This document shows, in pieces, positions 4,263-62,214 of a stretch of 64,000 nt of DNA. A program made the position numbers and the translations under genes. Under the pieces are notes generated by a model, which saw only the letters and a program-made list of their open reading frames with translations, had not been told where the DNA came from and searched no databases. Origin of the DNA: Stegostoma tigrinum (lineage: Eukaryota); assembly GCF_030684315.1 (NCBI RefSeq), contig NC_081382.1:15854592-15918591 (forward strand), in the 5' to 3' direction. Numbering within the stretch: position 1 is the stretch's first letter; the number at the start of each line of letters is the position of its first letter.

Positions 4263-4431
4263 AAGACAGGGATACTGAGTGAAATGCTGAATTTTATTTT
4301 GCTAACAGTACATATCAGTGGGCTATCACCACCAGAAACATGTTTCCCTCAAAGAGCTCTTTTCTTGTGTTACATACTGGAGTTAAGATCATTCACCATC
4401 AGTGCTGAATCAGGGCATGCTGCTCTCTTTT

Positions 4432-4588
4432 ACCTCATACCCCACAGTACCCTCATTCCCAACAGTACCATTATACCCAACAGTACCCTCATACCCAACA
4501 GTACCATCATACCCAACAGTACCCTCACACCCAACAGTACCATCATACCCAACAGTACCCTCGTACTCAATAGTACCCTCATATCTCA
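4432..4588. repeat. 18-bp minisatellite, about 8.5 units, with 36-bp higher-order alternation
   Basis: Unit CATACCCAACAGTACC(C/A)T; successive units alternate CCCT and CCAT. Confidence 0.95.
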
Positions 4589-5197
4589 CTGAAAATGGAG
4601 TGATGGCAAAAAATACACTTGTTTGACAATTGATTATTAACGTTGGCAATGCATAATTAGAAGAATATTGCAGAGGACATATATAGGACTGAAACAAACC
4701 ATTCAGTCCATCCAATCAATACGTTTCAATGACTACTATCTCAATGATTTGTATTTCCCTGTCACACAGTTTAGACAGCTTACCCTATGGCAATTGTATT
4801 CATTCCTAATTGGTCACAAACTGAGCACTCAACCTCCTGTTCTCTTGACTGTGAAGACTGCTTGTGTTAAACTCCATAATAATGCCTGTCACCACTTTTA
4901 TATTAAATAATCTTAACCATGTTTGGTTGCCCACAGATGCTGCTACTCTCATTTCCCTCTTGGCAGGCTTTCTATTTTCACTGTCCATAAAGTTGAGTTC
5001 ATCTAACACACTGCAGTCCATATCTTAAAAGCCTCAATCATTTATTAACTCTATATCTCCCAACCTATATTGCCCCCAAGGGTTGTTATTAATTACAAAT
5101 TTGAAGATTCTGATCGAGATTCACAAAATACTGAGGAAACAGGTACCTCTCATAACCAATATTGCACAGCTAAGAACGATTAAGCAGTTACAATTGA

Positions 5198-5287
5198 AGA
5201 AGGGTCTTGACCCAAAACGTAAAACTTTCCTGCTCCTCTGATGCTGCTTGGGCTGCTGCGTTCATCCAGCTTCACACCGTGTTATCT
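5198..5287 (+). mobile_element. Short PLE-derived element starting at the hammerhead core, short-type 3' end
   Basis: TTGAAGA-A-GGGTCTTGACCC-AAAAC-GTA followed by the PLE tail ending GTTATCT. Perfect 13-bp TSD CAGTTACAATTGA at 5185-5197 and 5288-5300. Confidence 0.85.
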
Positions 5288-8895: not shown

Positions 8896-9082
8896 AGAGT
8901 CACAGAATCATACAGTATGGCAACAGACCCTTTGGTCTAACCAGTGCATACCAACCATGTTCCCAAACTAGTACCACATGCCTGCACATGGCCCGTATAC
9001 CTCCAAACCTTTCCTATTCATTAACTTATTCAAATATCCTTTAGACATCATAACTGTACCTGCATTCTCCATTTTCTCTGGC
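8896..9082 (-). mobile_element. CR1 LINE 3' UTR fragment
   Basis: Starts AGAGTCACAGAATCATACAG...CAGACCCTTTGGTC, matching the reversed CR1 tails at 22.2 and 44.6 kb. Confidence 0.55.
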
Positions 9083-10234
9083 ATATGCAAAGTTTAAAAG
9101 GGCAGGTGTTCAGTACAAGGGAATGATAAAACACTGCGCAGTTAGACCCTTTTCAATTCCTTAAGAGTTTAGTCAAAGACCATACTACATTTCTGGGACC
9201 ATCAGCAGGAGAGAACATTGCATTTATCTTTTTGATTCTTTGAGTTCCCGGCGTTTCTTTCTCGCCAGTGTTGGGACTGGTTTTCCTTCTTGAAAGCAAG
9301 TTTTCTCCAGCCTGTTTCAGCTCTGTGGTCAAAAATCCATTTTATCCCCAAAAACCTCCTTCAATTCAAGGTTTTGTATGTTCTGTCTGCAGATGGTGTT
9401 CCATCTCCAATGTGACGAATTTCTCATGCTGCCAAACTTACCATTTATTCTGTCTTTGCTGCGATCTAAGTTGGATGCTATCTACAGAAAAGGCAAGTCT
9501 CTTGTTAACAGATGTACTTCCTGACATTAATGTGGTGCAAAGAGTACCCATGGTGCTTTACCTGGTCCACAATTGACATAATTCATTCATTTCTCCCATT
9601 CCCCCCAGTCCCAAGCAGTTCCCGTGAGTTTTGTTTCGTTCAGCAAGACCATAGAAGAGCACAGCACTTGTCTCACTTCTGACGCAAAACTACAGAATTG
9701 AGAGTTAAGATTCAGAACTGAAAAGCAGGTGAAGCCTTGCAACATTAAATTTTCACTAAAGAAGCTCAGTAAAAAGAATAGCTCTCATCTGTAAAATGTC
9801 TTCCACAGCCTTGATATCTGACAATGTTTTATAACCCATGAAGCAAAGTCATTGTTGCAATGTTGGGATAATATAATTGTGAATTATTTAAAAATGATTA
9901 TTGAAAGTTGAAGGTATCATGTTCCTTAGAAATTATATTAAAGCAGCAATATTGTTCAGATAAATACTTGTGGTTATTAATTGATATCACTGCAAATATC
10001 ATCCATAACTGTAATTAGCTTATAAATAGCAACTTGCGTTTCTAAAGGAAGCACTCCCCCACCCATTGCAAACTATGCCAAACTTCTGTTGAGCCTCAAG
10101 TAAAATTGGGAATTCCAGTCTTAACAACTACACAGCACTAGCTATCGTGATAACTGAGTTAGAAGCATTTTCGTAGACTTTGGCTAAATCCGGCTGAAAG
10201 ACCAGGAAGGGGACCCAGTCACTGGAGTTTTGAA

Positions 10235-13200: not shown

Positions 13201-13803
13201 CTGATTTGGGTCATATCTGGATTAGTTGTTAGGGAACACTTTAAGTACTATCAGATGATGTTAAATGCACACTTCCTACCTTAATCCCATTAACTTTATA
13301 ATTGCACTGTTAAATGTAGCCATGGGCAATTTCATTATGCCACTTAATCCAGGAAGCACCCATGCTTCCATCTTCATTTTTTCAGGATACATTAGGTAAT
13401 TGTGTAGTCATGCTATGCAAGTAATATTAGGTCTTGAACAATGAAAGAGATTGTTTGTTTGTAAACTGAATGAGGCAAAGTGTTTGGAATTGAGAATGAG
13501 ATCCCATGGAGTCTATCAGAGGAGCAGTACTTACTTCACCTGGCATAAAGTCTTATTGAAAGTAATAAGAAAGGCAATTCCCTTCTTGCTTGCCCAGGAT
13601 TCCTCTTATTTATTCGGAATGTTATTATGAGGCAAAGAATTCACTTGTCATGTCAATATTTTCTCCATCCCATGCAAACTTGAGGTTTTTTTTAATCCTT
13701 CAATTAAGTTATCAGGCTTATGATAATGTGTCTTCAACTGGCTGAAGCAAAAACCTTTCAGTTCTGAAGGACAACTGGGTTGAATACCAGGCTTGAAAAT
13801 TTA

Positions 13804-14011
13804 TTCAGAGATAGTACGAACTGCGGATGCTGGAGAATCTGAGATAACAAGGTGTAGAGCTGGATGAACACAGCAGGTCAAGCAGCATCAGAGGAGCAGG
13901 AAGACTGAGGTTTCAGGCCTAGATCCTTCTTCAGAAAGGGTCTAGGCCTGAAACGTCAGCCTTCCTGCTCCTCTGATACAGCTTGGCCTGCTGTGTTCAT
14001 CCAGCTCTACT
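13804..14011. mobile_element. Head-to-head (tails-out) inverted PLE derivative with 13-bp TSD, nested in a family-2 hammerhead element
   Basis: Left arm (minus) has the full tail and right arm (plus) is truncated at CCAGCTCTAC; arms meet near 13935. TSD GCTTGAAAATTTA at 13791-13803 and 14012-14024. The host element continues ACTCTGTTTTCTCTCCACAGATGCTGCCAGAC to about 14115. Confidence 0.9.
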
Positions 14012-15369
14012 GCTTGAAAATTTAACTCTGTTTTCTCTCCACAGATGCTGCCAGACGTGGTAAGTTTCTCCAGCATTTTTTTGTGTTTGTTGCAAATTTC
14101 AATCATCTGCAGTATTTTATTTATGTATTTATTTATTTTATTTGTAAGAAAGATTGCTGTGTATCAATGGAAATATCTAACTTAGAGTTGGAAAGACTGG
14201 GAGTTGAGAATGTACAGTTCATAGGGTTAATAATGTAAGTCCATTTCATCTTGAGACAAATCAGATACAAGGAACGTACGCAATTGTTATCTGGGTTAAT
14301 GCTTTTCAAACACATAAGAATATCAACCTCATTTAAGATAAGCCTCTGATGTTCTAATAGTGAGACTAAAAGAGTGAACAAAGTGCAAAGTTGTAGAGAC
14401 TATCACAACTTTCTAAAGGAAAGCACTTTCTCAATTAATGTAATCCATTTGAAGGAATCAACTATACACAGTGATTATTAACAATCTAGATTTAAACTGT
14501 GTCCAATTCCAGCTGGAATGTAGAGACTAGCATGGACAAGTTGGGTCAAATGGCCTGTTTCTGGACTGCACTTTCTATGGAAAGACCACTTGGCACTTCC
14601 AATGAGTTAAAATGCTGTAGTTTTGCATTGTATGGGGTAGGAAGGCATTGAATGAGCCATGATTTCTATGTTTTTTCTGAAGACAAGTCTGCCAACTGCT
14701 GGTAAAACTAAGGGATGTAAGAAATAAAGACTGATAACTTCACAGAAGCAAATTAGCATTGAGAAACAAGGTGACATTTATATTTCACTTTTAGAGCAAC
14801 TTTGAATCGGGCACTTAAAACATGAGCATTTATTATTGACTGCCATTCTCATTATTAAATTTGTTTTCACAATTCAAACCATCTACATTTGAATTTACCT
14901 TTATGTAAATACTTCTGAGTCATTGGATTGTTGGAGAAAGACATCATTCTGAGGTCAGCCTTGGTGGAGTAAACATTTTCTCTGGCTCTCTGCTAAAAGC
15001 TTTTAATGACATGTAAAAGAATTTATGACTTATTTGTAATACAATGCTCACTGCAGAACCCCTGCTTATTTCAAAACAGCTGCTTGCTGTTCAGATTGCT
15101 GTATATCATGCATGTAAAGACAACTTTACTTCGTACAATCATTTTTCTTCTTTTGGTAGAGATGAATTTTACCTGCTCCTTAATTCAAAGGCTGCTCAGC
15201 TGTGAATAACGTTCACTGAGTCATGTAATCTGCAGTTACATCCACACAACATATCACTGATTTCTTAAATTCATCATTGAAGGTAAGTGATTTCTGCAGA
15301 GACAAGAAAAGTAGTTCGACTGTAGTAGTACCTTCAGATTATTCCAAACCAGTTCTCAAGTGATAACTG

Positions 15370-15427
15370 GATGTGGTCCTAACATGCTGCTTGGACTGCT
15401 GTGTTCATCCAGTTCCACACTTTGTTA
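15370..15427 (+). mobile_element. Minimal PLE tail insertion
   Basis: ATGCTGCTTGGACTGCTGTGTTCATCCAGTTCCACACTTTGTTA; 16-bp TSD with two mismatches (15354-15369, 15428-15443). Confidence 0.7.
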
Positions 15428-16189
15428 TCTTAAGTGATAGCTGTTTAGATTTCTATAGCACCTTCAATGTAGCAAAAACATCCCAACAGATAAGGCAAAA
15501 CCAAACAAAACTATTGTATTTGCTTCAACTAATTGAATTCTAATTCTAATAGCTATGAATTACTAAAATCCTTCTCTTGTAAGTTTATATCACTGGCTAT
15601 GTGTACCAACGTCAGTGCTCATTTCTATTGCTTAAAAACCTTTTTCATTTAGCAGTTTTCTCTCAGCGTTAACATGGACTGTAACAATGAATGTTGGAGA
15701 GCAAGAGCAGTAAGTACAAAGAGACACAGGGCCAAGTTTATCTGTCAAAAGCATTGGCACTGCAGAATTTTCAATGGTTTTACCTGGCCCCTACCCAGTT
15801 AAACCATTTTCCATTGGTCTCCACATTACTGGAATGACTTGTTATTCATGGATTATATCAAGATATTTAGAGTTGTGGAAGAAACCACTTTACGCAGTTT
15901 TAACTGGATTGTTAAAGATTGGAAATAACACATCAAAAGTAGATATTTATCGAATAAGATTTCACTTACTTGACACAAAATTTAAGTCTGCAGTGAAATA
16001 AAACTCCAGTCATATGATTGTAGGTCTCTTTATTCTTTCACAGTCTTGTCTCTACATACATTTACCCAAAGGCAAATGATTAAAGTAGAAAAAGAATGGT
16101 GTTAATTTACTACCAATGATGTTAGCTGCTAAAAGGTGGAAGGTAGTATTTCAGTGACTTTTGGCACACCAGATAGTGGGATCTTAGAA

Positions 16190-16527: not shown

Positions 16528-18521
16528 CCCTGCCCCACCGAACTCATCTCCACCTATCTGGACTCCATTTTCTCCCCTTTGGTCCAGGAACTCCCCATCT
16601 ACGTCCGTGACACCACCCACGCCCTCCACCTCCTCCAGGACTTCCAATTCCCTGGCCCCCATCACCTCATTTTCACCACGGACGTCCAGTCCCTATACAC
16701 CTGTATTCCGCATGCAGATGGCCTCAAGGCCCTCCGCTTCTTCTTGTCCCGCAGGCCTGACCAGTCCCCCTCCACCGACATCCTCATCCGCCTAGCCGGA
16801 CTCGTCCTCACCCTCAACAACTTCTCTTTCGATTCCTCCCACTTCCTAAAGACAAAGGGGGTGGCCATGGGCACCCGCATGGGCCCCAGCTGTGCCTGCC
16901 CCTTTGTAGGTTACGTGGAACAGTCCCTCTTCCGCACCTACACAGGCCCCAAACCCCACCTCTTCCTCCATTACATTGATGACTGTATCGGCGCCGCCTC
17001 TTGCTCCCCAGAGGAGCTCGAACAGTTCATCCACTTCACCAACACCTTCCACCCCAACCTTCAGTTCACCTGGGCCATCTCCAGCATACCCCTCACCTTC
17101 CTGGACCTCTCAGTCTCCATCTCAGGCAACAGCTTGTAACTGATGTCCATTTCAAGCCCACCGACTCCCACAGCTACCTAGAATACACCTCCTCCCACCC
17201 ACCCTCCTGCAAAAATTCCATCCCCTATTCCAATTCCTCTGCCTCCGCCGCATCTGCTCCCACGATGAGGCATTCCACTCCCGCACATCCCAGATGTCCA
17301 AGTTCTTCAAGGACCGCAACTTTCCCCCAACAGTGGTCGAGAACGCCCTTGACCGCGTCTCCCGTATTTCCCGCAACACATCCCTCACACCCAGCTCCCG
17401 CCACAATCGCCCAAAGAGGATCCCCCTCGTTCTCACACACCACCCCGCCAATCTCCGGATACAACGCATCATCCTCCGACACTTCCACCATCTACAATCC
17501 GACCCCACCACCCAAGACATTTTTCCATCCCCACCCTTTGTCTGCTTTCCGGAGAGACCACTCTCTCCGTGACTCCCTTGTTCGCTCCACACTGCCCTCC
17601 AACCCCACCACACCCGGCACCTTCCCCTGCAACCGCAGGAAATGCTACACTTGCCCCCACACCTCTTCCCTCACCCCTATCCCAGGCCCCAAGATGACTT
17701 TCCACATTAAGCAGAGGTTCACCTGCACATCTGCCAATGTGGTATACTGCATCCACTGTACCCGGTGTGGCTTTCTCTATATTGGGGAAACCAAGCGGAG
17801 GCTTGGGGACCGCTTTGCAGAACACCTCCGCTTTGTTCGCAATAAACAACTGCACCTCCCAGTCGCAAACCATTTTCACTACCCCTCCCATTCTTTATAT
17901 GACATGTCCATCATGGGCCTCCTGCAGTGCCACAATGATGCCACTCGAAGGTTGCAGGAACAGCAACTCATATTCCGCTTGGGAACCGTGCAGCCCAATG
18001 GTATCAATGTGGACTTCACAAGCTTCAAAATCTCCCCTTCCCCCACTGCATCCCAAAATCAGTCCAGTTCGTGCCCTCCCCCCACTGCACCACACAACCA
18101 GCCCAGCTCTTCCCCTCCACCCACTGCATCCCAAAACCAGTCACACCTGTCTCTGCCTCCCTAACCTGTTCATCCTCTCACCCATCCCTTCCTCCCACCC
18201 CAAGTCGCACCTCCATCTCCTACCTACTAACCTCATCCCACCTCCTTGACCTGTCCATCTTCCCTGGACTGACCTATCCCCTCCCTACCTCCCCACCTAT
18301 ACTCTCCTCTCCACCTTTCTTCTTTTCTCTCCATCTTTGGTCCGCCTCCCCCTCTCTCCCTATTTATTCCAGAACCCTCACCCCATCCCCCTCTCTGATG
18401 AATGGTCTAGGCCCGAAACATCAGCTATTGTGCTCCTGAGATGCTGCTTGGCCTGCTGTGTTCATCCAGCCTCACATTTTATTATCTTGGATTCTCCAGC
18501 ATCTGCAGTTCCCATTATCAC
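16528..18521 (+). mobile_element. 5'-truncated Penelope-like element (RT + GIY-YIG), frameshifted
   Basis: RT motifs DVQSLYTCIP, GVAMGTRMGP, LHYIDD; linker PCNRRKCYTC; GIY-YIG NVVYCIHC..CGFLYIGET. 9-bp TSD TGCCTTAAA (16519-16527, 18522-18530); full-length tail. Confidence 0.95.
18393..18425 (+). ncRNA. Minimal hammerhead ribozyme motif (degenerate) in PLE 3' UTR
   Basis: CTGATGA at 18395-18401, stem II GGTC-TA-GGCC, GAAAC at 18415-18419. Cleavage triplet is ATC (CpG-decayed GTC). Confidence 0.7.
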
Positions 18522-29511: not shown

Positions 29512-29599
29512 CAAGGGTGGAGACATGAAGAGGTAGGTGTAGGAGTTATCAGTGTAGGGATAATGGGACGACTCTAGCAGAAATATTAGTCTCAAGGTG

Positions 29600-30100
29600 A
29601 TAAAATGTGAGGCTGGATGAACACAGCAGGCCCAGCAGCATCTCAGGAGCACAAAAGCTGACGTTTCAGGCCTAGACCCTTCATCAGAGAGGGGGATGGG
29701 GAGAGGGTTCTGGAATAAATAGGGAGAGAGGGGGACGTGGACTGAAGATGGAGAGAAAAGAAGATAGGTGGAGAGGAGAGTATAGGTGGGGAGGTAGGGA
29801 GGGGATAGGTCAGTCCAGGGAAGACGGACAGGTCAAGGAGGTGGGATGAGGTTAGTAGGTAGGAAATGGAGGTGCGGCCTGGGGTGGGAGGAAGGGATGG
29901 GTGAGAGGAAGAACAGGTTAGGGAGGCAGAGACAGGCTGGGCTGGTTTTGGGATGCAGTGGGTGGAGGGGAAGAGCTGGGCTGGTTGTGTGGTGCAGTGG
30001 GGGGAGGGGACGAACTGGGCTGGTTTTGGGATGCGGTGGGGGAAGGGGAGATTTTGAAGCTGGTGAAGTCCACATTGATACCATTGGGCTGCAGGGTTGC
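29600..30100 (-). mobile_element. 5'-truncated PLE (ORF C-terminus + 3' UTR), short-type 3' end
   Basis: LQPNGINVDFTSFKISPSPT; hammerhead core at 29660-29687. Perfect 12-bp TSD AGTCTCAAGGTG (29588-29599, 30101-30112). Confidence 0.95.
29658..29689 (-). ncRNA. Minimal hammerhead ribozyme motif, near intact
   Basis: CU-CUGAUGA-A-GGGUCUAGGCCU-GAAAC-GUC-AG. Confidence 0.75.
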
Positions 30101-39169: not shown

Positions 39170-40370
39170 GGCCAAGGCCAAGTTAATCAGCCTGTAATTT
39201 CCTGACTTTTGCCTTACTCTCTTCATTAGCAATTTTCCAGTCCTCTGATATCCTTCCTGGCTCCAGTGATTCTGGAAAGATCACCACTAATGCCTCCACT
39301 ATCTCTTCAACTATCTCCTTCAGATCGCTGAGGTATCATCTAACCATTCCAGGTGATTTATCCAACTTCACACCTTTCAGTTTTTCTAGCACCTTCTCCT
39401 TGGTGATGGCTGAGGACTGACGCAAAGTACTTATTCAGTTCTTCTGCCATTTCTTTGCTCCTCATTACTGGGCCGCTAGAAAGTGATGCCAATGAAGTAA
39501 TGTCCACTCTTGCCTTTCTTTTTCCCTTTACATACTGAAAGAAAGTTTACATTCTTCTTTTATATTACTGGCTAGCTTACCCTCATATTTAATCTCCTCC
39601 CTCCTTTTTTTTTAGCTGTCTCTGTTGGTCTTTGTAGGCTTCCCAATCCCCTGGCTTCCCACTGCCCTTAGCTGCATTTTATACTTTCTCTTTTGTTTTT
39701 GTACTGTCCCTGACTTCCCTTGTCAGCCCTTGTTGCCTCATTATCCCTGTACCATGCTTCTTTTTTCTAGGGATAAAGGTTTGTTGTGTCTCCTGAATTA
39801 CTGCCAGGAACTCCTGCTTTTGCTGTTCCACGGTATTTCCTGCTAGGCTCCTCTCCCAGTTAATTCCACTCAGCTCCCTCGTACCCCGATATTTGCCTTT
39901 ATTCAGCTGTAATACCATTGTACCTGATTCCAGCTTCTCCATCTCAAATTTCAGGGTAAATTTTATCCTATCATGGTCACTACCTCCTAAAGGTTCCTTC
40001 CCCTTTAGCTCTCTTATCAAGTCTGCCTCATTGCACAACACTAAATCCAGAATTGCCTGTTTCCTAGTGGGCTCCACCACAAGCTGCTCCATAAATCCAT
40101 CTCATAGGCAATCCAAAAGCTCCTTTTCTTGCAATCCATTACCAACCTGATTTTCCCAGTCCACCTGCATGTTGAATTCCCCCATAATCACCGTAATCAT
40201 GCCTTTCTTACGCACCTTTTGTCTGTCCTGGTATATCTTGTGCCCCAGATCCTGACTACTATTTGAAGGCCTATACATAACTCCCTTTTTTTTTATCTTT
40301 GTGGTTCCTTAACTCTACCCACATAGATTTGAAATCATCTGACACTGTGTCATTCCTTGCTATTGAGTTG
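39170..40370 (-). mobile_element. CR1 LINE fragment, APE endonuclease region onward
   Basis: EQLVVEPTRKQAILDLVLCNE...EPLGGSDHD (APE domain C-terminus), with degenerate downstream ORF2. Confidence 0.85.
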
Positions 40371-41399: not shown

Positions 41400-42910
41400 G
41401 GTTATTCCAACTATGTATCAGGAGATATAGTTTGGAAGGAGGGAGGGAGTTTTGCATGGAAAAAATTAAAGGACGGAAGGGCTCAGCAGACGTTTTTATT
41501 CAAGTTTCCAAAAGAACTAATAGAGTGTGTTGAAAGGCCTAGGAATCTAACGTTAGGCATACCAGATAAGAAGACAGCTATGAGAGGATGGTGCAGTCAG
41601 TGCAGGACTGACGATGTTGTATTTTAATGCAAGAGGTGTACAAGCCATGGTAAATGAGCCCTTAGAGCGGAGTGAAATGGGCAAGTACAATGTTGTGGGT
41701 ATCTTAAAAACGTGGCTGTAAAGGAATCAGGGCTGGGAGATAAATAGCCAAGGATATTCATCCTATCAAAAGGACTGGCAGATTGACAAAGGAGGCAAGG
41801 TTGCCTGTTAGTAAGAAATGAAATTAAATCAATAGCAAGAAGTGATATAGAGTCAAAAGGCTTGGAATCTGTATAGGCAGGGTTGAGGTGCCTCAGGAGA
41901 AAAACCTTTGATGGGATTTGTGCGCAGGCCCCCTAGCAGGAGTCAGAATGTGGGGAAGAAAATAAATCAGGCGATAACGAAGCCATGTAAGAAAGGCACT
42001 TTCATAATAATCATTGCGGACTTCAATATATAGGTGAACTGGGAAAATCAAATTGGTAGTGGATACCAAGGAAAGGAATTCATGGAATGTCTATGAGATT
42101 TTGTTTGGAGCAGCTTGTGGTATTTTCCACTAGGGAACAGACAATTCTGGATTTAAAGATGAGTAATGAGGCAGACTTGATTAGGGAGATTAAGATGAAG
42201 GAATTCTTAGGAACCAGTGATCATAATATGATAGTGTGAGATCATGCACTTTGGTTGGGAGAATAAGAGCTGTAGAATATTTTCTAAATAGGGAAAGGCT
42301 TCAGAAATCTGAAACACCAAGGGACTCGGGAGCCCTTGCTCAGCATTTTGTTAAAGTTAACATGCAGGCCCAGTTGGCAGTTGAAAAGGAATATGCAACA
42401 TTGTATTAATTTCAAGAGGACAAGAATACAGGACCAGAGATGTGCTACTGTAGCTGCATGAGGCAGTGTTCAGACTGCATTTAGAAGGAAGGGGTGGTGG
42501 TGCGAATATCATTGAAACCTATAGAATATAGAAACTTATAGAATAGGACTGGATAGAGTGGACATGGAAAAAATGTTTCCACCAGTATGAGAGACGAGGA
42601 CCTGAGGGCACAGCCTCAAAGTGGTGACGACCCTTTAGAACTGAGATGAGGAAGAATTTCTTCAGCTAGAGGGAGGTGAATCTATGGAACTCATTGCTGC
42701 AGAAGGCTGTGGAGGTCAAGTCATTCAGTGTGTTTAAGACAGAGATGGAGAGATGGATAGTGGATAGATACTTGATTAATAAGAGGATCAAGGGTTACAG
42801 GGAGGAGGTAGGAAAATGGGATGGGAAATAAATCAGCCATGATCAGTTAGCGGAGCAGACTCAATGAGCTATATTGCTTAATTCTTCTCCTAAATCTTGT
42901 GGTCCTGTGG
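41400..42910 (+). mobile_element. CR1 LINE fragment(s): endonuclease region joined to late RT and 3' end
   Basis: Decayed APE motifs (GGACTTCAAT, CAATTCTGGATTTA, AGTGATCATAATATG) to about 42235. Then an abrupt jump to ATCATGCACTTTGG (MHFG) and GAGATGAGGAAGAATTTCTTC through the 3' UTR. Confidence 0.8.
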
Positions 42911-47296: not shown

Positions 47297-47397
47297 ACAG
47301 AAGTTAGTAAGGAAGCCTATGCAGTGTGAATAGGGCTGAGTGTGCCTTAGATGTATCCAAACTTAATGCCAAGTGACCTGTTCAGCTTTATTATTCT

Positions 47398-47809
47398 CTT
47401 CCCCTCCACCCACTGTATCCCAAAACCAGTCCAGCCTGTCTCTGCCTCCCTAACCTGTTCTTCCTCTCACCCATCCCTTCCTTCCATCCCAAGCCACACC
47501 TCCATCCACTACCTACTAACCTCATCCCACCTCCTTGACCTGTCCATCTCCCCTGGACTGACCTATCCCCTCCCTACCTCCCCATCTATACTCTCCTCTC
47601 CACCTATCTTCTTTTCTCTCCATCTTCGGTCCGCCTCCCCCTCTCTCCCTATTTATTGCAGAACCCTCACCCCATCCCCCTCTCTGATGAAGGGTCCAGG
47701 CCCGAAACATCAGCTTTTGTGCTCCTGAGATGCTGCTGGGCCTGCTGTGTTCATCCAGCCTTACATTTTATTATCATGGATTCTCCAGCATCTGCAGTTC
47801 CCATTATCA
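47398..47809 (+). mobile_element. 5'-truncated PLE 3' end, full tail
   Basis: Near-identical to 18110-18520; hammerhead core 47684-47711. Perfect 15-bp TSD CAGCTTTATTATTCT (47383-47397, 47810-47824). Confidence 0.95.
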
Positions 47810-48899: not shown

Positions 48900-49813
48900 A
48901 GCAATATTACTAATTCAGAGGGGAATTTGCAGACGGTGGTGTTCCTATGCATTTCCAGGGATGGAAACCCCTTTTTCTAGGTGATAGAGAAAGCAAGTTT
49001 GGAAAGTGTTGTTGGAGGACCTTGCTGAATCACAGCAGTGATCTTGTAAATAATATGCTCTGCTGTGATAATATGTTCGTGGTCGAGGGAATGAATGTTC
49101 AAGATGGTAGAAGGGGTATGATCAAGCAGGTTCCTTTGTCCTAAATAGTATTGCACTTTTTGAGTATTGTTAGAACTGCATTTATCCACGGGATAGTGGC
49201 TATTCCATCGCATTCATGACTTGTGCCTTGTAGATGGTGAACAAGCACTAGGGGATCAACAGGTGAGCACTTGCTGCAGACTTCTGACCAACTGTTGCAG
49301 CCACCATATTTATATGGCAGGTCCAGTTACATTTTGGATAATTTATAACCACCAGGACTTTGATTGTGTTGAAATTGTGACTGAACATTCAGGGGTGATG
49401 GTTGACGCTTGTGTGATGTGGATGTTACCTACCACTTATCAGCCCATGTTGTCAATGAACACAAAGCTGCATACTGCTTCAGTGAACTTCTTCATTATCT
49501 GAGAAGTCTTAGATGGCATTGGACGGTATGCATCATTTGTAAGCATCCCACTTGTGATCTTATGACATACTTGGGCCGAGGATAATGTGGTGAAATATCC
49601 AGGAGCTGAGATGATTGCCCTCAAACAAAAAAAGTCACATTCTTTAGCACTTGGCATAATTCCAATCAATTTAGAGCTCTCCCCCAGTTTCCGAATCACT
49701 TCAGTTTTGCTTGGGCATCTTGATGTCTTGGACAACCAGCCTCACTTCACCTGGTATCTGGAGTTAAGCTCTTTTGACGATGTTTCATGCCAAGTGGCCT
49801 TGAAGAAACCCAA
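48900..49813 (-). mobile_element. Old LINE remnant (continues at 53592-53770 beyond the PLE insertion)
   Basis: Homologous to 43.8-46.6 kb; continuity across the TSD. Confidence 0.55.
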
Positions 49814-49827
49814 CAGAGCATAGGTGA

Positions 49828-51943
49828 TAACAAAGTGTGAAACTGTGAACACAGCAGGCCAAGCAGCATCTCAGGAGCACAAAAACTGATGTTTCGGGCC
49901 TAGACCCTTCATCAGAGAGGGGGATGGGAAGAGGGACCTGAAATAAATAGGGAGAGAGGGGGAGGCAGATCGAAGATGGGTAGAGGAGAAGATAGGTGGG
50001 GAGGAGATAGGTCAGTCCGGGGAGGATGGACAGGTCAAGGAGGCGGGATGAGGTTGTTAGGTGGGAAATGGAGGTGCGGCTTGAGGTGGGTGGAGGGGAT
50101 AGGTGAGAGGAGGAACAAATCAGGAAGGGGGGATGAGCTGGGCTGGTTTTGGGATGCAGTGGGTGGGGGGATGAGCTGGGCTGATTTTGGGATGCAGTGG
50201 GGGAAGGGGAGGTTTTGAAGCTTGTGAAGTCCACGTTGATACCATTGGGCTGCAGGGTTCCCAAGTGGAATATGAGTTGCTGTTCCTGCAACCTTCGGGT
50301 GGCGTCATTGTGGAACTGTAGGAGGCCCATGATGGACATGTCATCTAAGGAATGGGAAGGGGAGTTGAAATGGTCCGCGACTGGGAGGTGCAGTTGTTTA
50401 TTGTGAACCAAGCAGAGGTGTTCTGCAAAGCTGTCCCCAAGCCTCCGCTTGGTTTCCCCAATGTAGAGGAAGCCCCACCTGGTACAGTGGATACAGAATA
50501 CTACATTGGCAGATGTGCAGGTGAACATCTGCTTAATATAGAAAGGCATCTTGCGGCCTGGGATAGGGGTGAGGGGGGAGGTGTGGGGGCAAATGTAGCA
50601 CTTCCTGTGATTGCAGGGGAAGGTGCCGGGTGTGGTGGGGTTGGAGGGGAGTGTGGAGCGGACAAGGGGGTCACGGAGAGAGTGGTCTCTCCGGAAGGCA
50701 GACAAAGGTGGGGATGAAAAAATGCCTTGGGTGGTGGGGTCGGATTGTAGATGGCGGAAGTGTCGGAGGATGATGCGTTGTATCCAGAGGTTGGTGGGAT
50801 GGTATGTGAAGACGAGGGGGATTCTTGCAGGGGCGGGATGTCAGGGATGTGTTGCAGGAAATGCTGGAGACACGGTCAAGGGCGTTCTTGACCACTGCGG
50901 TGGGGGAAGTTGCGGTCCTTGAAGAACGCGGCCATCTGGGATGTGCAGGAGTGGAATGCCTCATCGTGGGAGCAGATGCAGTGGAGGCGAAAGAATTGGG
51001 AATAGTGGATGGAATTTTTGCAGGGGGATGGGTTGGAGGAGGTCTTTTCTAGGTAGCTGTGGGAGTCGGTGGTCTTGAAATGGACATCAGTTTCTAGCTG
51101 GTCGCCTGAGATGTCCAGGAAGATGAGGGATGTGTTGGAGATGGCCCAGGTGAACTTGAGGTTGAGGTGGAAGGTGTTGGTGAAGTGGACGAACGGTTCG
51201 AGCTCCTCTTGGGAGCATGAGGCAGCGCCGATATAGTCATCAATGTAACGGAGGAAGAAGTGGAGTTTGGGGCCAGTGTAGGTGCGGAAGAGGGACAGTT
51301 CCACATAACCTACAAAGAGGCAGGCATAGCTTGGGCCCATGAGGGTACCCATGGCCACCCCCTTTGTCTGTAGGAAGTGGGAGGAATCGAAAGAGAAGTT
51401 GTTGAGGGTGAGAATGAGTTCGGCTATGCCGATGAGGGTGTCAGTGGAGGGGGACTGATCGGGCCTGCGGGACAGGAAGAAGCAGAGGGCCTTAAGGCTA
51501 TCTGCATGAGGAATACAGGTGTATAGGGACTGGACATCTATGGTGAAAATGATGTGTTGGGGACCAGGGAATTGGAAGCTCTGGAGGAGGTGGAGGGCGT
51601 GGGTGGTGTCACGGACGTAGCTAGGGAGTTCCTGGACCAAGGGGGAGAAAATGGAGTCCAGACAGGTGGAGATGAGTTCGGTGTGGCAGGAGCAGACGGA
51701 GACAACAGGTCGGCCAGGGCAGGCGGGTTTGCGGATTTTGAGAAGGAGATAGAAACGGGCAGTGCGCGGTTGGGGAACAATGAGGTTGGAGGCTGTGGGT
51801 GGGAGGTCCCCTGAGGTGATTTGGTCATGGATGGTATTGGAGGTAATGTTTTGGTGCTCGGGGGTGGGATCATGATCAAGGGGGCAGTAGGAGGAGGTGT
51901 CGGAGAGTTGGCGTTTGGCCTCGGCGATGTAGAGGTCAGTGCT
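49828..51943 (-). mobile_element. PLE left arm of inverted composite (RT + GIY-YIG, short-type 3' end)
   Basis: ORFs 50876-51640 (RT, LRYIDD) and 49785-50705 (GIY-YIG); hammerhead core 49888-49915. Confidence 0.95.
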
Positions 51944-51948
51944 TTGAC

Positions 51949-53577
51949 CTACTTCCTACAGGCAAAGGGGTTGGCCATGGGTGCCCTCATGGGCCCAAGC
52001 TATGCCTGCCTCTTTGTAGGTTATGTGGAACAGTCCCTCTTCCGCACCTACACTGGCCCCAAACCCCACCCCTTCCCCCATTACATCGATGACTGTATCG
52101 GCACTGCCTCTTGCACCAAAGAGGAGATCGGACATTTCATCCACTGCACCAACATCTTCCACTTCAACCTCAAGTTCACCTGGGCCATCTCCAACACATC
52201 CCTCACCTTTCTGGACCTCTCTGTCTCCATCTCAGGCAACCAGCTAGAAACTGATGTCCATTTCAAGCCCACCGACTCCCACAGCTACCTAGAATACGGC
52301 TCCTCCCACCCAACCCCCTGCAAAAATTCCATCCCCTATTCCCAATTCCTTCACCTCCGCCGCATCTGCTCCCAGGATGAGGCTTTCCACTCCCGCACAT
52401 CCCAGATGGCCGCCTTCTTGAAGGACCACAACTTCCCCCCTCCGTAGTGGTCAAGAACGCCCTTGACAGTGCCTCCCACATTTCTGGCAACACATCCCTC
52501 ACACCCTGCTCCCGCAATAACCACCCTAAGAGAATCCACCCCACCATACCACCCCACCAACCTCTGGATACAACGCATCATCCTCCATCACTTCCGCCGT
52601 CTACAGTCCGACCCCACCACCCAAGACATTTTTCCAACCCCACCCTTGTCTGCCTTCCGGAGAGATCACTCTCTCTGTGACTCCCTTGTTCGCTCCACAC
52701 TCCTCTCCAACCCCACCACACCCAGCACCTTCCCCTGCAACCGCAGGAAATGCTACACTTGCCCCCACACCTCCTCCCTCACCCCTATCCCAGTCCCCAA
52801 GATGCATTTCCATATTAAGCAGATGTTCACCTGCACATCTGCCAATGTAGTATACTGTATCCACTGTACCTGGTGTGGCATCCTCTACATTGGGGAAACC
52901 AAGCGGAGGCTTGGGGTCCGCTTTGCAGAACACCTCCGCTCGGTTCGCAATAAACAACTGCACCTCCCAGTCGCAAACCACTTCCACTCCCCCTCCCATT
53001 CTTTAGATGACATGTCCATCATGGACGTCCTACAGTGCCACAATGATGCCACCCGAAGATTGCAGGAACAGCAACTCATATTCCACTTGGGAACCCTGCA
53101 GCCCAATGGTATCAATGTGGAGTTCACAAGCTTCAAAACCTCCCCCTCCCCCACTACATCCCAATACCAGCCCAGCTCATCCCTTCCCCCCACTGCATCC
53201 CAAAACCAGCCCAGCTTGCCCCCGCCTCCCTAACCTGTTCTTCCTCTCACCTATCCCCGCCTCGCACCTCCATTTCCCACCTACTGACCTCATCCCGCCT
53301 CCTTGACCTGTCCGTCCTCCCCGCACTGACCTATCCCCTCCCTACCTCCCCACCTATACTCCCCTCTTCACCTATCTTCTCCTCTACCCATCTTCAGTCT
53401 GCCTCCCCCTCTCTGCTTATTTATTTCAGAAACCTCTCCCCATCCCCCTCTCTGATGAAGGGTCTAGGCCAGAAATGTCAGCTTTTTTGCTCCTGAGATG
53501 CTGCTTGGCCTGCTGTGTTCATCCAGCCTCACACTTTGTTATCTTGAATTCTCCAGCATCTGCAGTTCCCATTATCT
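51949..53577 (+). mobile_element. PLE right arm of inverted composite (partial RT + GIY-YIG, full tail)
   Basis: GLAMGALMGPSYA...HYIDD and NVVYCIHC..CGILYIGET; hammerhead core 53452-53479. A single 14-bp TSD CAGAGCATAGGTGA (49814-49827, 53578-53591) encloses both arms. Confidence 0.95.
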
Positions 53578-54419
53578 CAGAGCATAGGTGAGCAGGTTAT
53601 TGCTGGCGATTAGGAATAGTCTTATCGGACAATAATTGGCTGCAGTAAATTGGTCCTGCTTTTTATGGACAGGTTATATGTGAGCAATTTTCCACTTGTT
53701 AAGTAGACGCCAGTATTATAGTTTTACTTTAATAGTTGGCTAGGGATGCAGTTAGCTCTGCAGCACAAGTCACATCCTGAAAATGAACCATGAACAATAT
53801 AAACACCTTGTGCTCAAAGAACAGCTCAACTTGGGTAGCTTTCAGTCCTAAGTTAACCACAAAGCTCTGCTAGAATACTTTAAAATCCAGATGCTCCCTT
53901 TATCCCTAAATCAGCCTCTATCTCAAATAGCTACTCTGCAACTCTGTTTTGGACATAATTGTCAGATCACATTCTTCATAAGGAACATTTCTGCAACAGT
54001 GATACTCTAAACCACTTTCAGTGTCAAGTTTATTTTATAAATCCTTGCGATCATTTCCCTAGAATTATATCTTCCCTATTCAAATTGGCCGAAATCATCC
54101 ACATGTTTAAGGGAAGCCATTAAGTCTCCTTTTGTTTTCTGCTTAATTGCAAATGGGATATCTTACTAGTTCCCTCCAGTGTAACGACATTTTCCCATTC
54201 CTGGCATCATCCTGGTGAATCGATGTTCCATGCTGATTATGGTTCTATTACTTTTTCTCCCAAAACTGCAGATAGTACTACATCTATGTTTTGTAAATGT
54301 TTCTCAATACTCCTTTCTATTTGCATCCTATATTCCATTTTATGAAACTAAAATAGTGCAGCGTATTGTAGCTAATTACTTCATCTATCTCAGTAATTTT
54401 TGAATGTTTGAACAGCAGA

Positions 54420-58316: not shown

Positions 58317-58675
58317 CCTGTTCATCCTCTCACCCATCCCTTCCTCCTACCCCAAGACGCACCTCCATCTCCTACCTACTAACCTCATCCCACCTCCTTG
58401 ACCTGTCCATCTTCCCTGGACTGACCTACCCCCTCCCTACCTCCCCACCTATACTCTCCTCTCCACCTATCTTCTTTTCTCTCCAACTTCGGTCCGCCTC
58501 CCCCTCTCTCCCTATTTATTCCAGAACTCTCAGCCCATCCCCCTCTCTGATGAATGGTCTAGGCCCGAAATGTCAGCTTTTGTGCACCTGAGATGCTGCT
58601 GGGCCTGCTGTGTTCATCCAGCCTCACATTTTATTATCTTGGATTCTCCAACATCAGCAGTTCCCATTATCACTG
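55930..58675 (+). mobile_element. Near full-length Penelope-like element (Neptune-type)
   Basis: N-terminal SKGLTF, KPADKGGAVVV, FYLLPKIHK, DVQSLYTCIP, GVAMGT, LRYIDD, linker PCNRRKCYIC, GIY-YIG domain, 3' UTR with hammerhead (58547-58574) and full tail. No clear TSD. Confidence 0.95.
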
Positions 58676-59413
58676 ACAAGCTGTTTATCAGGCTTCTATC
58701 TATATTACTGATTCCATCATGAACTACATTTTTTTTGATTATTCTCCTACCCTTTCTCAAAATTTCTTTTCAGTGTTTTCCATGATAATATTCACCCTGT
58801 TACCAAAGATACATCAAAAAATTTATGACTCTTGGATATGATATATGAAAGGTTGCTTTCTCTTCTGCTTGTTCAGTGTCTCAATATTATTGTACCTTTT
58901 ATTCTTAACGTATACCTAAGTCTCATTCCTCTGGATAGTCCTTTGCTCAATAGGTTCATTATTAAGTGCCAACACTCTCCTGAGTCCTATTATAGTCCAT
59001 CTCAGTGCTAAGGGTAGGATTTTATCAGCCCTCTGGAGATATACTGGGAGGTAGGAGGGCTTGCAAAATGGCAGTGGAAGGCAATAAGAGGAATTTTGAC
59101 ATTCTCTTGTCGGCATAGGATATTGAGAGATGAGAATTGCAGTGTTGGCTGGAGGTTAGCAGTCAATTAATCCAATTGACAAACCCACCTGCACTTTACC
59201 CTCCCAAGATAAATGGGAAGCCATCAACTAATGTGAGGCAGATTCCTGACAAAGAGAAGGAGCCCTGATTTGCAGGGAGGGGGCACCCCCTCGTGGCATT
59301 GGCTGCCCCCGACTCTGGAGAGTACACACCGTTTCTTCGATGGGTCCCATCTGTCTGATCCTGGTACATTTTTTGAAAAAGTCAGCCTTTGAGGGCACCT
59401 CAACATGAAGGCA

Positions 59414-59617
59414 GAGATAGTTGGAACTGCCGATGCTGGAGAATCTGAGATAACAAGGTGTAGAGCTGGATGAAAACAGCAGGCCAAGCAGCATTGGAGG
59501 AGCAAGAAAGCTGACATTTTAGGTGTGGACGAAGCAACCTAGGCCTGAAATGTCAGCCTTCCTGCTCCTATGATGCTGCTTGGCCTGCTGTGTTCATCCA
59601 GCTCTACACCTGGTTAT
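59414..59617. mobile_element. Head-to-head inverted PLE derivative with 15-bp TSD
   Basis: Left (minus) arm has the full tail; right (plus) arm stops at TGGTTAT. TSD CTCAACATGAAGGCA (59399-59413, 59618-59632). Confidence 0.9.
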
Positions 59618-62214
59618 CTCAACATGAAGGCATACTTTTTTGCTCCCTTACAGCCTCAGCTGTTGCTACTTCACCAAGACTTCATAGTTGCCAGCTGTCT
59701 GATAGGTGGGACAGCTTGGATAGGCCATACACAGTTGTAGACAATTCCTGCACTGGCTTCTTCATTAGCTACCATTAATAAAATCCTGTTCACAGTACTC
59801 CTGTCCTCCTGCCTGGAACAAGACTTGCATTTGGCAGGAGAATGACTTGCTGGTAAAACTCAACCATGTACCTTCATTCATTGTAGTAATTTATGATCTC
59901 CCTGAGTTGTTTTCCTCAGCTGGTCTTGCAGATCGTCTCCTGTTTTCTTTTAGTCTACAATATCCTGCTGTTTTGAACTATTTAGCACTACTGTTCTGAT
60001 GACTCCGTTCTGGAAAGTGCAACTAAAGACTCTCTGCTCCAGAGACAACACTTGTCTGCAGTTAGTGGTAATATGTTGGTCCTTCATGAACTGAGGATCT
60101 GTCATTGCTCATATGCTCCACTGAATGAATACATGGTTTGCTGCACTGGTATCTCCTTGTGTCTAACTGCAGTATGTTACTATTGTCCTAATGTTAAACT
60201 AAAGGTCCATTTAAACCAAACCTCACTCACTCAACATAATTATCACTTATTGATAGGAAACTTCTGCCGATTCCCTCTAATTGTGAACTCCTGCTGAAGC
60301 TAAACACCCCGATGTTCTGGTCTTTCATACTCCAATGGGCTCAGTTAGACAGCTGAAGACTACGTCAGGGAAAATACTGAGCAGTAACTCATCTCTTCTG
60401 ACTTCTCAACGTTGATTTACAGTTTAGTTATAATTTACAGTGAATGTTAATAACAATTCACAATTGGACTGCCATTGTAGTGCTTTGTCAGCGCTGAGTT
60501 TCGCAATGTGACATCTGTTATAATAAAGCAAATTCCACTTTCCATCATCTCCAGGCTTTCTTGTTGGCAATGGAGTGATCCAGTCTCTCAGACTGAGATT
60601 GTTACGTGAGGATAGTTCACAAAAGACTTACATCAATTCTTTTCATTCTGATAATGTCTGTTTGATACTTCCATCATCGTGAGCATAGGGCATGCTTGAT
60701 AGACCAGTTAATCTGTCTCTGTCTGCTGCTCTGGTATAATTCTAATATGTACTAAACACCACATTGGAAATTAAATGTGATCATATGAATAATCAAATTA
60801 TCACTTCAGGAGAAATTACAAAATTGCATTTTGCCTTCTCTGAGAATGAGACCTTTAATCTGTTTTACTTTTTATAAATTCAGAATGTCCACCAAAGTCT
60901 GAACCAGGTATTCATTCCCCAAGGATGACAGGTAGGAAGTAAATAACGCAATTTGGAGAACAAACCTGATTTTGCCATCTTTATTTTTACCAAGCATTAG
61001 GAAATTCCTACACCACATCACTTCTGAAATAAAATGCAAAAAACAATATAAAGTTTTTTTAAAATTTTGTGATTTCTGGAAATGTGATATAAAACTAGAA
61101 AATTGTAGAATCGCTTAGCAGTCATTTGGCATCCATGGAGAGAACTGAGAGGATAATATTTCGAGTGTGGGACATCCATTGGAACCAGGCCGTGTTATAA
61201 ATGAACAGCCATTTTTTTTAAGAAACCGGAATTTAGGGAGGTGGAAATAAAGACAAAAAACAAATTTAAACACCCCCACCAGTACTCAGCTCCACCTCAT
61301 AAGTATTCACCTGAGTAAGAATAAATGCATCGGACTATTAAGTGCTGAAGATGAAGACAGGCGCTGGCCTAGAAATTGAAATGATAATTGTGATAAGAAT
61401 TGAGATCAATTAAATACATTGATTTCCCTTTTTTGGCTTGTTGATATAATGACATTTTCTCTGTCATGATATTTTCATGCTTTCATTATAAATACAGAAA
61501 ACACTAGGTGAAATAGATGTCTGGGAAGGTGATGGTTGCCCTTACCATCTGGATGTTCCTTCTGGGAAGGATTCACTGAAATGTTGGGTGAAGAAACAAA
61601 AGGCATTAATACTTTCTGCAGGGTATCCATGGATTTTCCAACAGAGCCACTGTGATGGCTGAGAGAAAACCTGCAGAAATTTAATTCCACGTTGCTTTGT
61701 TTCAATCATTGATGGCAGACGACATCCTAACTTTAGAGAGCTGGTGCTGCTTGGTTGACTCTTCTAGCATGGCAAGGCCAAACTCAGCATAAGGTTGTCA
61801 ATATTGAGCAAAACCAGAGAATTACAGGATTGTGTTGAAACATTTCAATTGAATTCAGCTGGAACACTCAAATAAACTTGTTTCCATATTCAACGATTCC
61901 TGCTCTAAGTTCCTCAACAAGGAATGTCTCATACAGTGCAATACATGCAAGTGAAGGCATTGTCCAATCTATCAACTTTTGCATTAATGAGCAAGTGTAC
62001 ACAAAATATTTTTGTTCGTGTATTTGTATGAATTGTACAATCACCATGAAATAATGTAAATTTTATTTAAGTACCGGTTGTTCAATAAACCTTATTGAAA
62101 TTTGCATATTTTCTGTGGTGTTATTTATTGATGATCTGAAGTCTAGTGTAGGGTGAATGTATTTAATGGCCGAGTTAAAATTGTCTTTACCCATTTACTT
62201 CCTCCCTCCGCACT

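Follow-up and report, generated by a model that had tools for sequence, protein, structure and literature searches.

How two long copies of one retroelement came to be joined by their 5′ ends inside a single target site duplication (TSD) is the question raised by positions 49814..53591 of the window, the whole 64,000-nucleotide stretch of Stegostoma tigrinum DNA that was analyzed. The locus is a single old, broken Penelope-like element (PLE) insertion, now dead coding sequence, whose two 5′-truncated arms lie head-to-head within one TSD (Table 1). The first-pass annotation had reported a perfect 14-bp TSD around a minus and a plus arm, and this is confirmed: the 14-mer CAGAGCATAGGTGA has two exact occurrences in the whole window, at 49814 and 53578 only, with 3,750 bp enclosed between them. 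As a TSD of at least 9 bp was found in just 1 of 300 mismatched flank pairs used as a control, the one here is beyond chance.

Table 1. Coordinates, within the window, of the features of the paired insertion
Feature	Position	Strand	Basis
TSD left copy, 14 bp	49814..49827	+	exact-match search; last 2 bases also fit the element's continuation
Left arm, 2,115 bp, 5′-truncated	49828..51942	-	alignment, translation
Hammerhead-core-like motif, left arm pLTR	49888..49915	-	CTGATGA, short stem, GAAA; read by eye from sequence
Head-to-head junction	51933..51950		sequence and alignment
Right arm, 1,630 bp, 5′-truncated within RT	51948..53577	+	alignment, translation
GIY-YIG endonuclease remnant	52847..53080	+	PF01541 E=0.002, 18.8 bits, under the 22.6 cut-off; motifs in translation
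Hammerhead-core-like motif, right arm pLTR	53452..53479	+	read by eye from sequence
Tail, ~34 nt, right arm only	53544..53577	+	arm comparison
TSD right copy, 14 bp	53578..53591	+	exact-match search

Anatomy and identity of the insertion

The left arm carries RT, linker, GIY-YIG and 3′ UTR/pLTR sequence in a reading frame disrupted by deletions and one frameshift, and it is without the terminal tail; the right arm has the tail and a frameshift near 52440. By BLAST the minus arm spans 49826-51942 and the plus arm 51948-53576, with 86.8% identity between them over 1,608 columns including gaps, and the p-distance is 9.3% over 1,501 common columns. The earlier description of both arms as holding the 3′ end of the element stands for their overlap in the template, but the minus arm stops short of the last ~34 nt. 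At the junction, five bases (51943-51947) could be aligned with neither arm; they lie within a fold-back of 6 bp (AGGTCA/TGACCT, loop of 6 nt) that may be the product of a snap-back. Contigs of two public samples, one of which may be the source of the assembly itself, match 49000-49870 and so bridge the left outer junction, reaching 43 nt into the element; at the right outer junction contigs of the same samples match 53558-54400, only 20 nt inside the element and below the 31 nt set as the bridging rule. No piece spanning the central junction is among the listed contigs of these samples. The joint of an empty site is likewise absent among those listed from two runs under other organism labels, whose contigs were placed at 93% likeness with patchy flank cover and with 1,851 further joints beyond those listed.

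By the definitions given in PMC8557442, the element is, judging from its translations, a putative Neptune- or Nematis-type PLE. The arms translate to RT, a CX4CxxC linker and GIY-YIG with cysteines between its two motifs, all of them broken. A CX2-5CxxC linker between RT and endonuclease is what defines Neptune and Nematis there; it is present as CNRRKCYTC in the right arm, where it precedes the GIY-YIG remnant, and in a young relative, L135. The right arm also contains VVYCIHCTWCGILYIG, which in the same definitions goes with endonuclease-bearing PLEs. An ADKGG motif is found in the 56-kb copy and in L135, in a part of the element that is 5′ to the truncation points of both arms. RT followed by a C-terminal GIY-YIG in one ORF is seen from the arm remnants together with L135, whose frame of 831 codons is open and includes the DKG motif. 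PF00078 is present in most of the listed homologues of that ORF and PF01541 in part of them, the closest named among those listed being from the orectolobiform sharks Stegostoma tigrinum (96%), Rhincodon typus (88%) and Chiloscyllium punctatum (76%). A tail of 30-40 nt at one end, an inverted 5′-truncated copy and a TSD, the other marks of a PLE, are all present. Pfam matched neither of the two RT pieces of the arms, a PDB sequence search with the young ORF had no match at E≤1, and the locus had four chance-level Rfam matches at E≤5, none of them a hammerhead. The predicted fold of the 3′ end is no more stable than shuffles (z 0.83). Six long copies, all of which may be 5′-truncated, have no direct 5′ pLTR upstream.

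The two variant motifs that had been quoted as common to the arms are as stated, and 48 columns unite both arms against the 16.5-kb and 56-kb copies (crossed groupings 6 and 4). However, at 40 of the 48 the arm allele is present in at least half of 58 B-like copies, so most variants common to the arms are subfamily markers and not private to them, and the quoted motifs show subfamily and not a common template. Distances of the two arms to the subfamily majority are similar, 5.7% and 5.9%. For neither arm is the mate the nearest copy: 13 and 9 of 56 other copies, partly picked for likeness to the arms, are closer. Rare non-CpG variants common to both number 3 in 1,356 columns (2.2/kb), a mild excess at about the 90th percentile of non-mates. 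A first genome-wide look gave about 9,000-10,000 candidates for the arm pieces, the best matches being of 88-90% identity.

Head-to-head pairs elsewhere in the genome

Ninety-nine stretches of 10 kb picked by likeness to the arms, plus the window, contained 89 adjacent pairs with tails out and one tail-to-tail. A TSD of at least 9 bp bounds 67 of the 89 (mismatched control 1/300), and in all 67 exactly one arm is tailed, a rule that holds in 49 of 49 once tail-selected anchors and the present locus are removed; among all 89, one tail is present in 83, none in 4 and two in 2. The unselected survey comprised 40 stretches (400 kb), 10 beside the window and 30 at round coordinates, in which the family occupies about 24 kb. 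After two of its 23 pairs were dropped at edges, 20 of 21 have a TSD and 19 of these 20 have one tail, the exception, scored as having none, retaining the tail end behind an internal deletion. Single arms number 27, with a TSD in 8, seven of them tail-less and one tailed. The head-to-head pair is then the commonest TSD-resolved unit in unselected sequence (20 of 28), and the notion that the structure is unusual is not supported; it matches the published PLE unit (PMC3846280, PMC8557442). Three unselected pairs exceed 1.5 kb, from which a crude extrapolation puts long head-to-head insertions genome-wide in the order of 10^4.

Priming near the RNA 3′ end, as had been supposed, is to be read as one start at the tail site and another ~35 nt upstream in every TSD-bounded pair of the stretches picked by likeness and of the young subfamily described below. 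Among 32 non-anchor single insertions with a TSD, 17 are tail-less, 14 tailed and one unclear; because tail-less ones carry TSDs, the upstream site is a real end. In the selected survey 27 of 43 asymmetric pairs have a tailed arm shorter than its mate, a bias that is not significant (p 0.13). Mates match in subfamily, their scores being correlated with a rho of 0.84 over 26 pairs, and among old copies five mate pairs have 2.84 rare shared variants per kb vs 0.51 for non-mates.

A much younger subfamily was reached with one young arm as query, which gave 40 matches at 99-100%; 32 new loci were taken, plus L068 and L040. There are 22 adjacent pairs, 19 of them with an exact TSD (11-16 bp), the three without (L137, L138 and L160) being left out of end analyses. 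One tail is present in all 19. The tailed ends are confined to a 12-nt range, and 16 of the tail-less ends lie 31-50 nt upstream with three further inside. Microhomology to the TSD at the outer ends averages 2.05 and 1.74 nt vs 0.47 and 0.49 when shuffled, and the observed level was reached in none of 5,000 TSD shuffles. The tailed arm is longer in 6 and shorter in 9 of 15 asymmetric pairs, while in 4 of the 19 the 5′ ends fall within 10 nt of each other, giving near-perfect palindromes (permutation p 0.0005). Three of these four near-symmetric pairs, L130, L147 and L152, have an extra 6-8 bases on the tail-less arm.

Variants in the young set are also shared by mates. Twelve of 35 doubletons are held by mates vs 0.45 expected, with the qualification that three come from L040, the sole sampled pair of its sub-lineage, and two are adjacent; most are rare among 152 older copies. 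Three further mate-shared variants recur in other young insertions and therefore derive from the source copy. When every shared variant is counted, 21 young pairs give 1.46/kb in mates vs 0.16/kb. Neither the old nor the young rates tell a common template apart from conversion between the arms. L133, L159 and L138 have ancestral alleles on one arm only, and the young arms at L159 1150-2727 (-) and L133 3599-5312 (-) carry tracts of such alleles not in the mate, either by ectopic conversion from older copies or by template switching. Two long young copies, L134 1149-3988 and L135 2327-6821, are near-identical, have rare variants in common and are oppositely oriented on a single contig, at a distance of ~20 kb.

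In L1 twin priming both target strands prime cDNA and the inverted 5′ part lies within one TSD with short microhomologies, the second primer annealing well inside the RNA so that the parts are adjacent. In the shark, by contrast, neither arm begins more than ~35 nt from the same end, and the two have 1.5 kb in common. The distinction from L1 drawn at the outset is supported, and the locus does not fit a product of L1-type twin priming, as its arms overlap on the template across 1,501 aligned columns. A few family members, L045 and L103 for example, do have a non-overlapping inverted part. Inverted internal pieces short of the 3′ end are found at L045 1002-2139, L103 7215-8820, L125 1221-3955 and L058 1-1713, and look more like L1-type twin priming or template jumping.

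A separate regularity concerns the 5′ ends, which in 56 of 134 arms of TSD-bounded pairs (L031-L129 and the window) are at or just around the putative hammerhead core. The cluster is at reference positions 2625-2699, equivalent to 58524-58598 of the window, and may reflect a stop site, the 5′ end of the RNA, or short pLTR-derived templates.

Origin of the paired arms

Probably one ribonucleoprotein made nicks ~14 bp apart in the two target strands, and each 3′ end then primed a cDNA. The first primer would start at the tail site and the second ~35 nt upstream, each pairing by perhaps 0-4 bases; both cDNAs would end early, at different positions, and their 3′ ends would be joined with little or no homology and then filled in, at 49814..53591 via a short snap-back. 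A single-arm insertion would mean that one of the two cDNAs had been lost. The templates are likely from one source copy and perhaps from one RNA molecule. Because independent priming gives one tail in half of the pairs at most, the two ends are coupled, and it is both this coupling of the start sites and the joining of the products that we infer. All the counts agree with two target-primed cDNAs begun at two fixed start sites, and so does what is reported of the Anolis element considered below (PMC11167929). The original proposal of one integration in which both target strands primed reverse transcription is supported by the family survey as the most likely course and fits the in vitro work on that element, but the two primings are not equivalent.

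Some observations sit less easily with two cDNAs from one template. At the present locus other copies are nearer than the mate and only the three rare variants are common to the arms; one-arm ancestral alleles in young pairs mean that later conversion or a template switch is required; and the near-perfect palindromes in 4 of 19 young pairs are predicted by fold-back too. The in vitro results on the Anolis element also weigh on this side, since its start sites did not differ between strands and it initiated without target homology (PMC11167929). Variants shared by mates could stem from arm-to-arm conversion, and microhomology arises in end joining too.

Fold-back, in which one cDNA turns back to serve as its own template, or an antisense template primes itself, with the endonuclease resolving the product ~35 nt inside its end and later central deletions giving asymmetry, is rather unlikely. 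It draws on self-priming as proposed in PMC3846280 and on endonuclease resolution of the tail in PMC8557442, and it accounts for the single tail of each pair, the shared rare variants, the palindromes with their permutation p of 0.0005, and the 6-bp fold-back at the 51933..51950 junction. However, simple fold-back requires one arm to contain the other and so fails for any pair with a shorter tailed arm; such pairs are frequent (27/43 and 9/15, this locus included), and in them neither arm contains the other. Shorter tailed arms are seen even in 99%-identical young copies, which have had little time for deletion, and the extra bases of L130, L147 and L152 are on the wrong side for a loop of tailed cDNA. 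The TSDs of tail-less single insertions and the primer-like microhomology at both ends also count against it.

Priming by both strands on two separate RNAs, held by a dimer with one protomer per start site, is unlikely. Copying one RNA twice would be avoided, the ancestral tracts confined to one arm of L133 and L159 would follow, as would the arms here being no nearer each other than other subfamily members, and all other evidence is in common with the coupled priming from one ribonucleoprotein preferred above. Against it, mates share rare variants far above chance, arms that stop within 10 nt of each other in 4 of 19 pairs are simpler with one RNA or one source copy, and two free RNAs alone do not force one tail per pair. 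Very improbable is the chance head-to-head arrangement of two insertions made independently, or an inversion or recombination event at a later time: the density of the family and the divergence of the arms would allow it, but a single TSD surrounds both arms, these are similarly far from the subfamily majority, the bias in adjacent pairs is 89 to 1, and the one-tail rule is left without explanation. That the central junction is an assembly artefact, for which the lack of a spanning contig among those listed might be cited, is scarcely conceivable with a perfect TSD, a left outer junction bridged in two samples and the same anatomy in dozens of loci, and arms that differ by 9.3% are not one copy collapsed or mirrored.

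Going beyond the locus, we tentatively raise the possibility, itself open to considerable doubt, that two-cDNA integration is the normal route of this PLE clade, with a dimer on one RNA bringing the two target primers to two fixed start sites, and with a leading and a trailing polymerase both copying that RNA, the cDNA ends being joined without classical second-strand priming at the 5′ end. Three of the four young pairs that are nearly symmetric have a tailed arm that ends 6-8 nt before its tail-less mate, the pattern expected of a trailing polymerase.

Relation to known elements

The locus itself is ordinary and of an already described layout. A typical PLE unit, as set out in PMC3846280 and PMC8557442, has an inverted 5′-truncated copy by its 5′ end, a tail at one end and one TSD, and Pen2a_Av and relatives (Arkhipova et al. 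2013, PMC3846280; Craig et al. 2021, PMC8557442, Fig. 2 legend) have the same head-to-head inverted copy with a single TSD. The Pen2a_Av unit is further alike in its 30-40-nt tail at one end only and a short palindrome at the inverted junction (PMC3846280). The shark locus differs in that each arm is long, at 2.1 and 1.6 kb, and coding, with no direct 5′ pLTR, and in a TSD of 14 bp as against 8-10 bp in the rotifer. The descriptions of Pen2a_Av in the available portions of PMC3846280 and PMC8557442 give no counts for a one-tail rule or the relatedness of mates, and the origin of tandem and inverted PLE structures is named as an open question in PMC8557442. The distribution of PLE clades is treated in bioRxiv 10.64898/2026.07.22.740005.

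PAc, the Poseidon element of Anolis carolinensis, has been studied in vitro (Frangieh et al. 2024, PMC11167929), where both target strands were cleaved and extended from two start sites that bracket the tail, with no strand difference in start site and with initiation that does not need target homology; the element is predicted to form a dimer. Like the shark family it has RT with a C-terminal GIY-YIG. A hammerhead motif lies near its start sites, where the shark arms have a candidate core, and the spacing of its two RT start sites is that of the tail (PMC11167929). In contrast it belongs to the Penelope/Poseidon clade, while the shark family has the Neptune/Nematis CX2-5CxxC linker. In the main text of PMC11167929, joined inverted products and coupling within one target are not treated. 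No coupled two-cDNA model for PLE inversions was evident from the titles and openings of the literature searched, and the novelty of such a model is not established. The one-tail rule, the microhomology at both ends and the variants shared by mates narrow the mechanism of PLE integration, and the family statistics give a direct prediction for an existing in vitro system, which makes the mechanism testable. The young 99%-identical subfamily of this shark is a large natural record for testing the two-cDNA route.

The window has several smaller features. At 13791-14024 and 59399-59632 are two small tails-out pairs of a related family, ~78-88% identical to the 56-kb copy, with TSDs of 13 bp and 15 bp and a tail on one arm only. 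Five single-arm insertions, at 5195-5287, 15372-15431, 16529-18520, 29593-30098 and 47397-47809, have TSDs of 9-15 bp, three being tail-less and two tailed. There is a tandem array with an 18-bp unit at 4399-4596, and 39964-40369 and 41826-42233 form an unrelated old inverted repeat pair with 71% identity over 410 columns.
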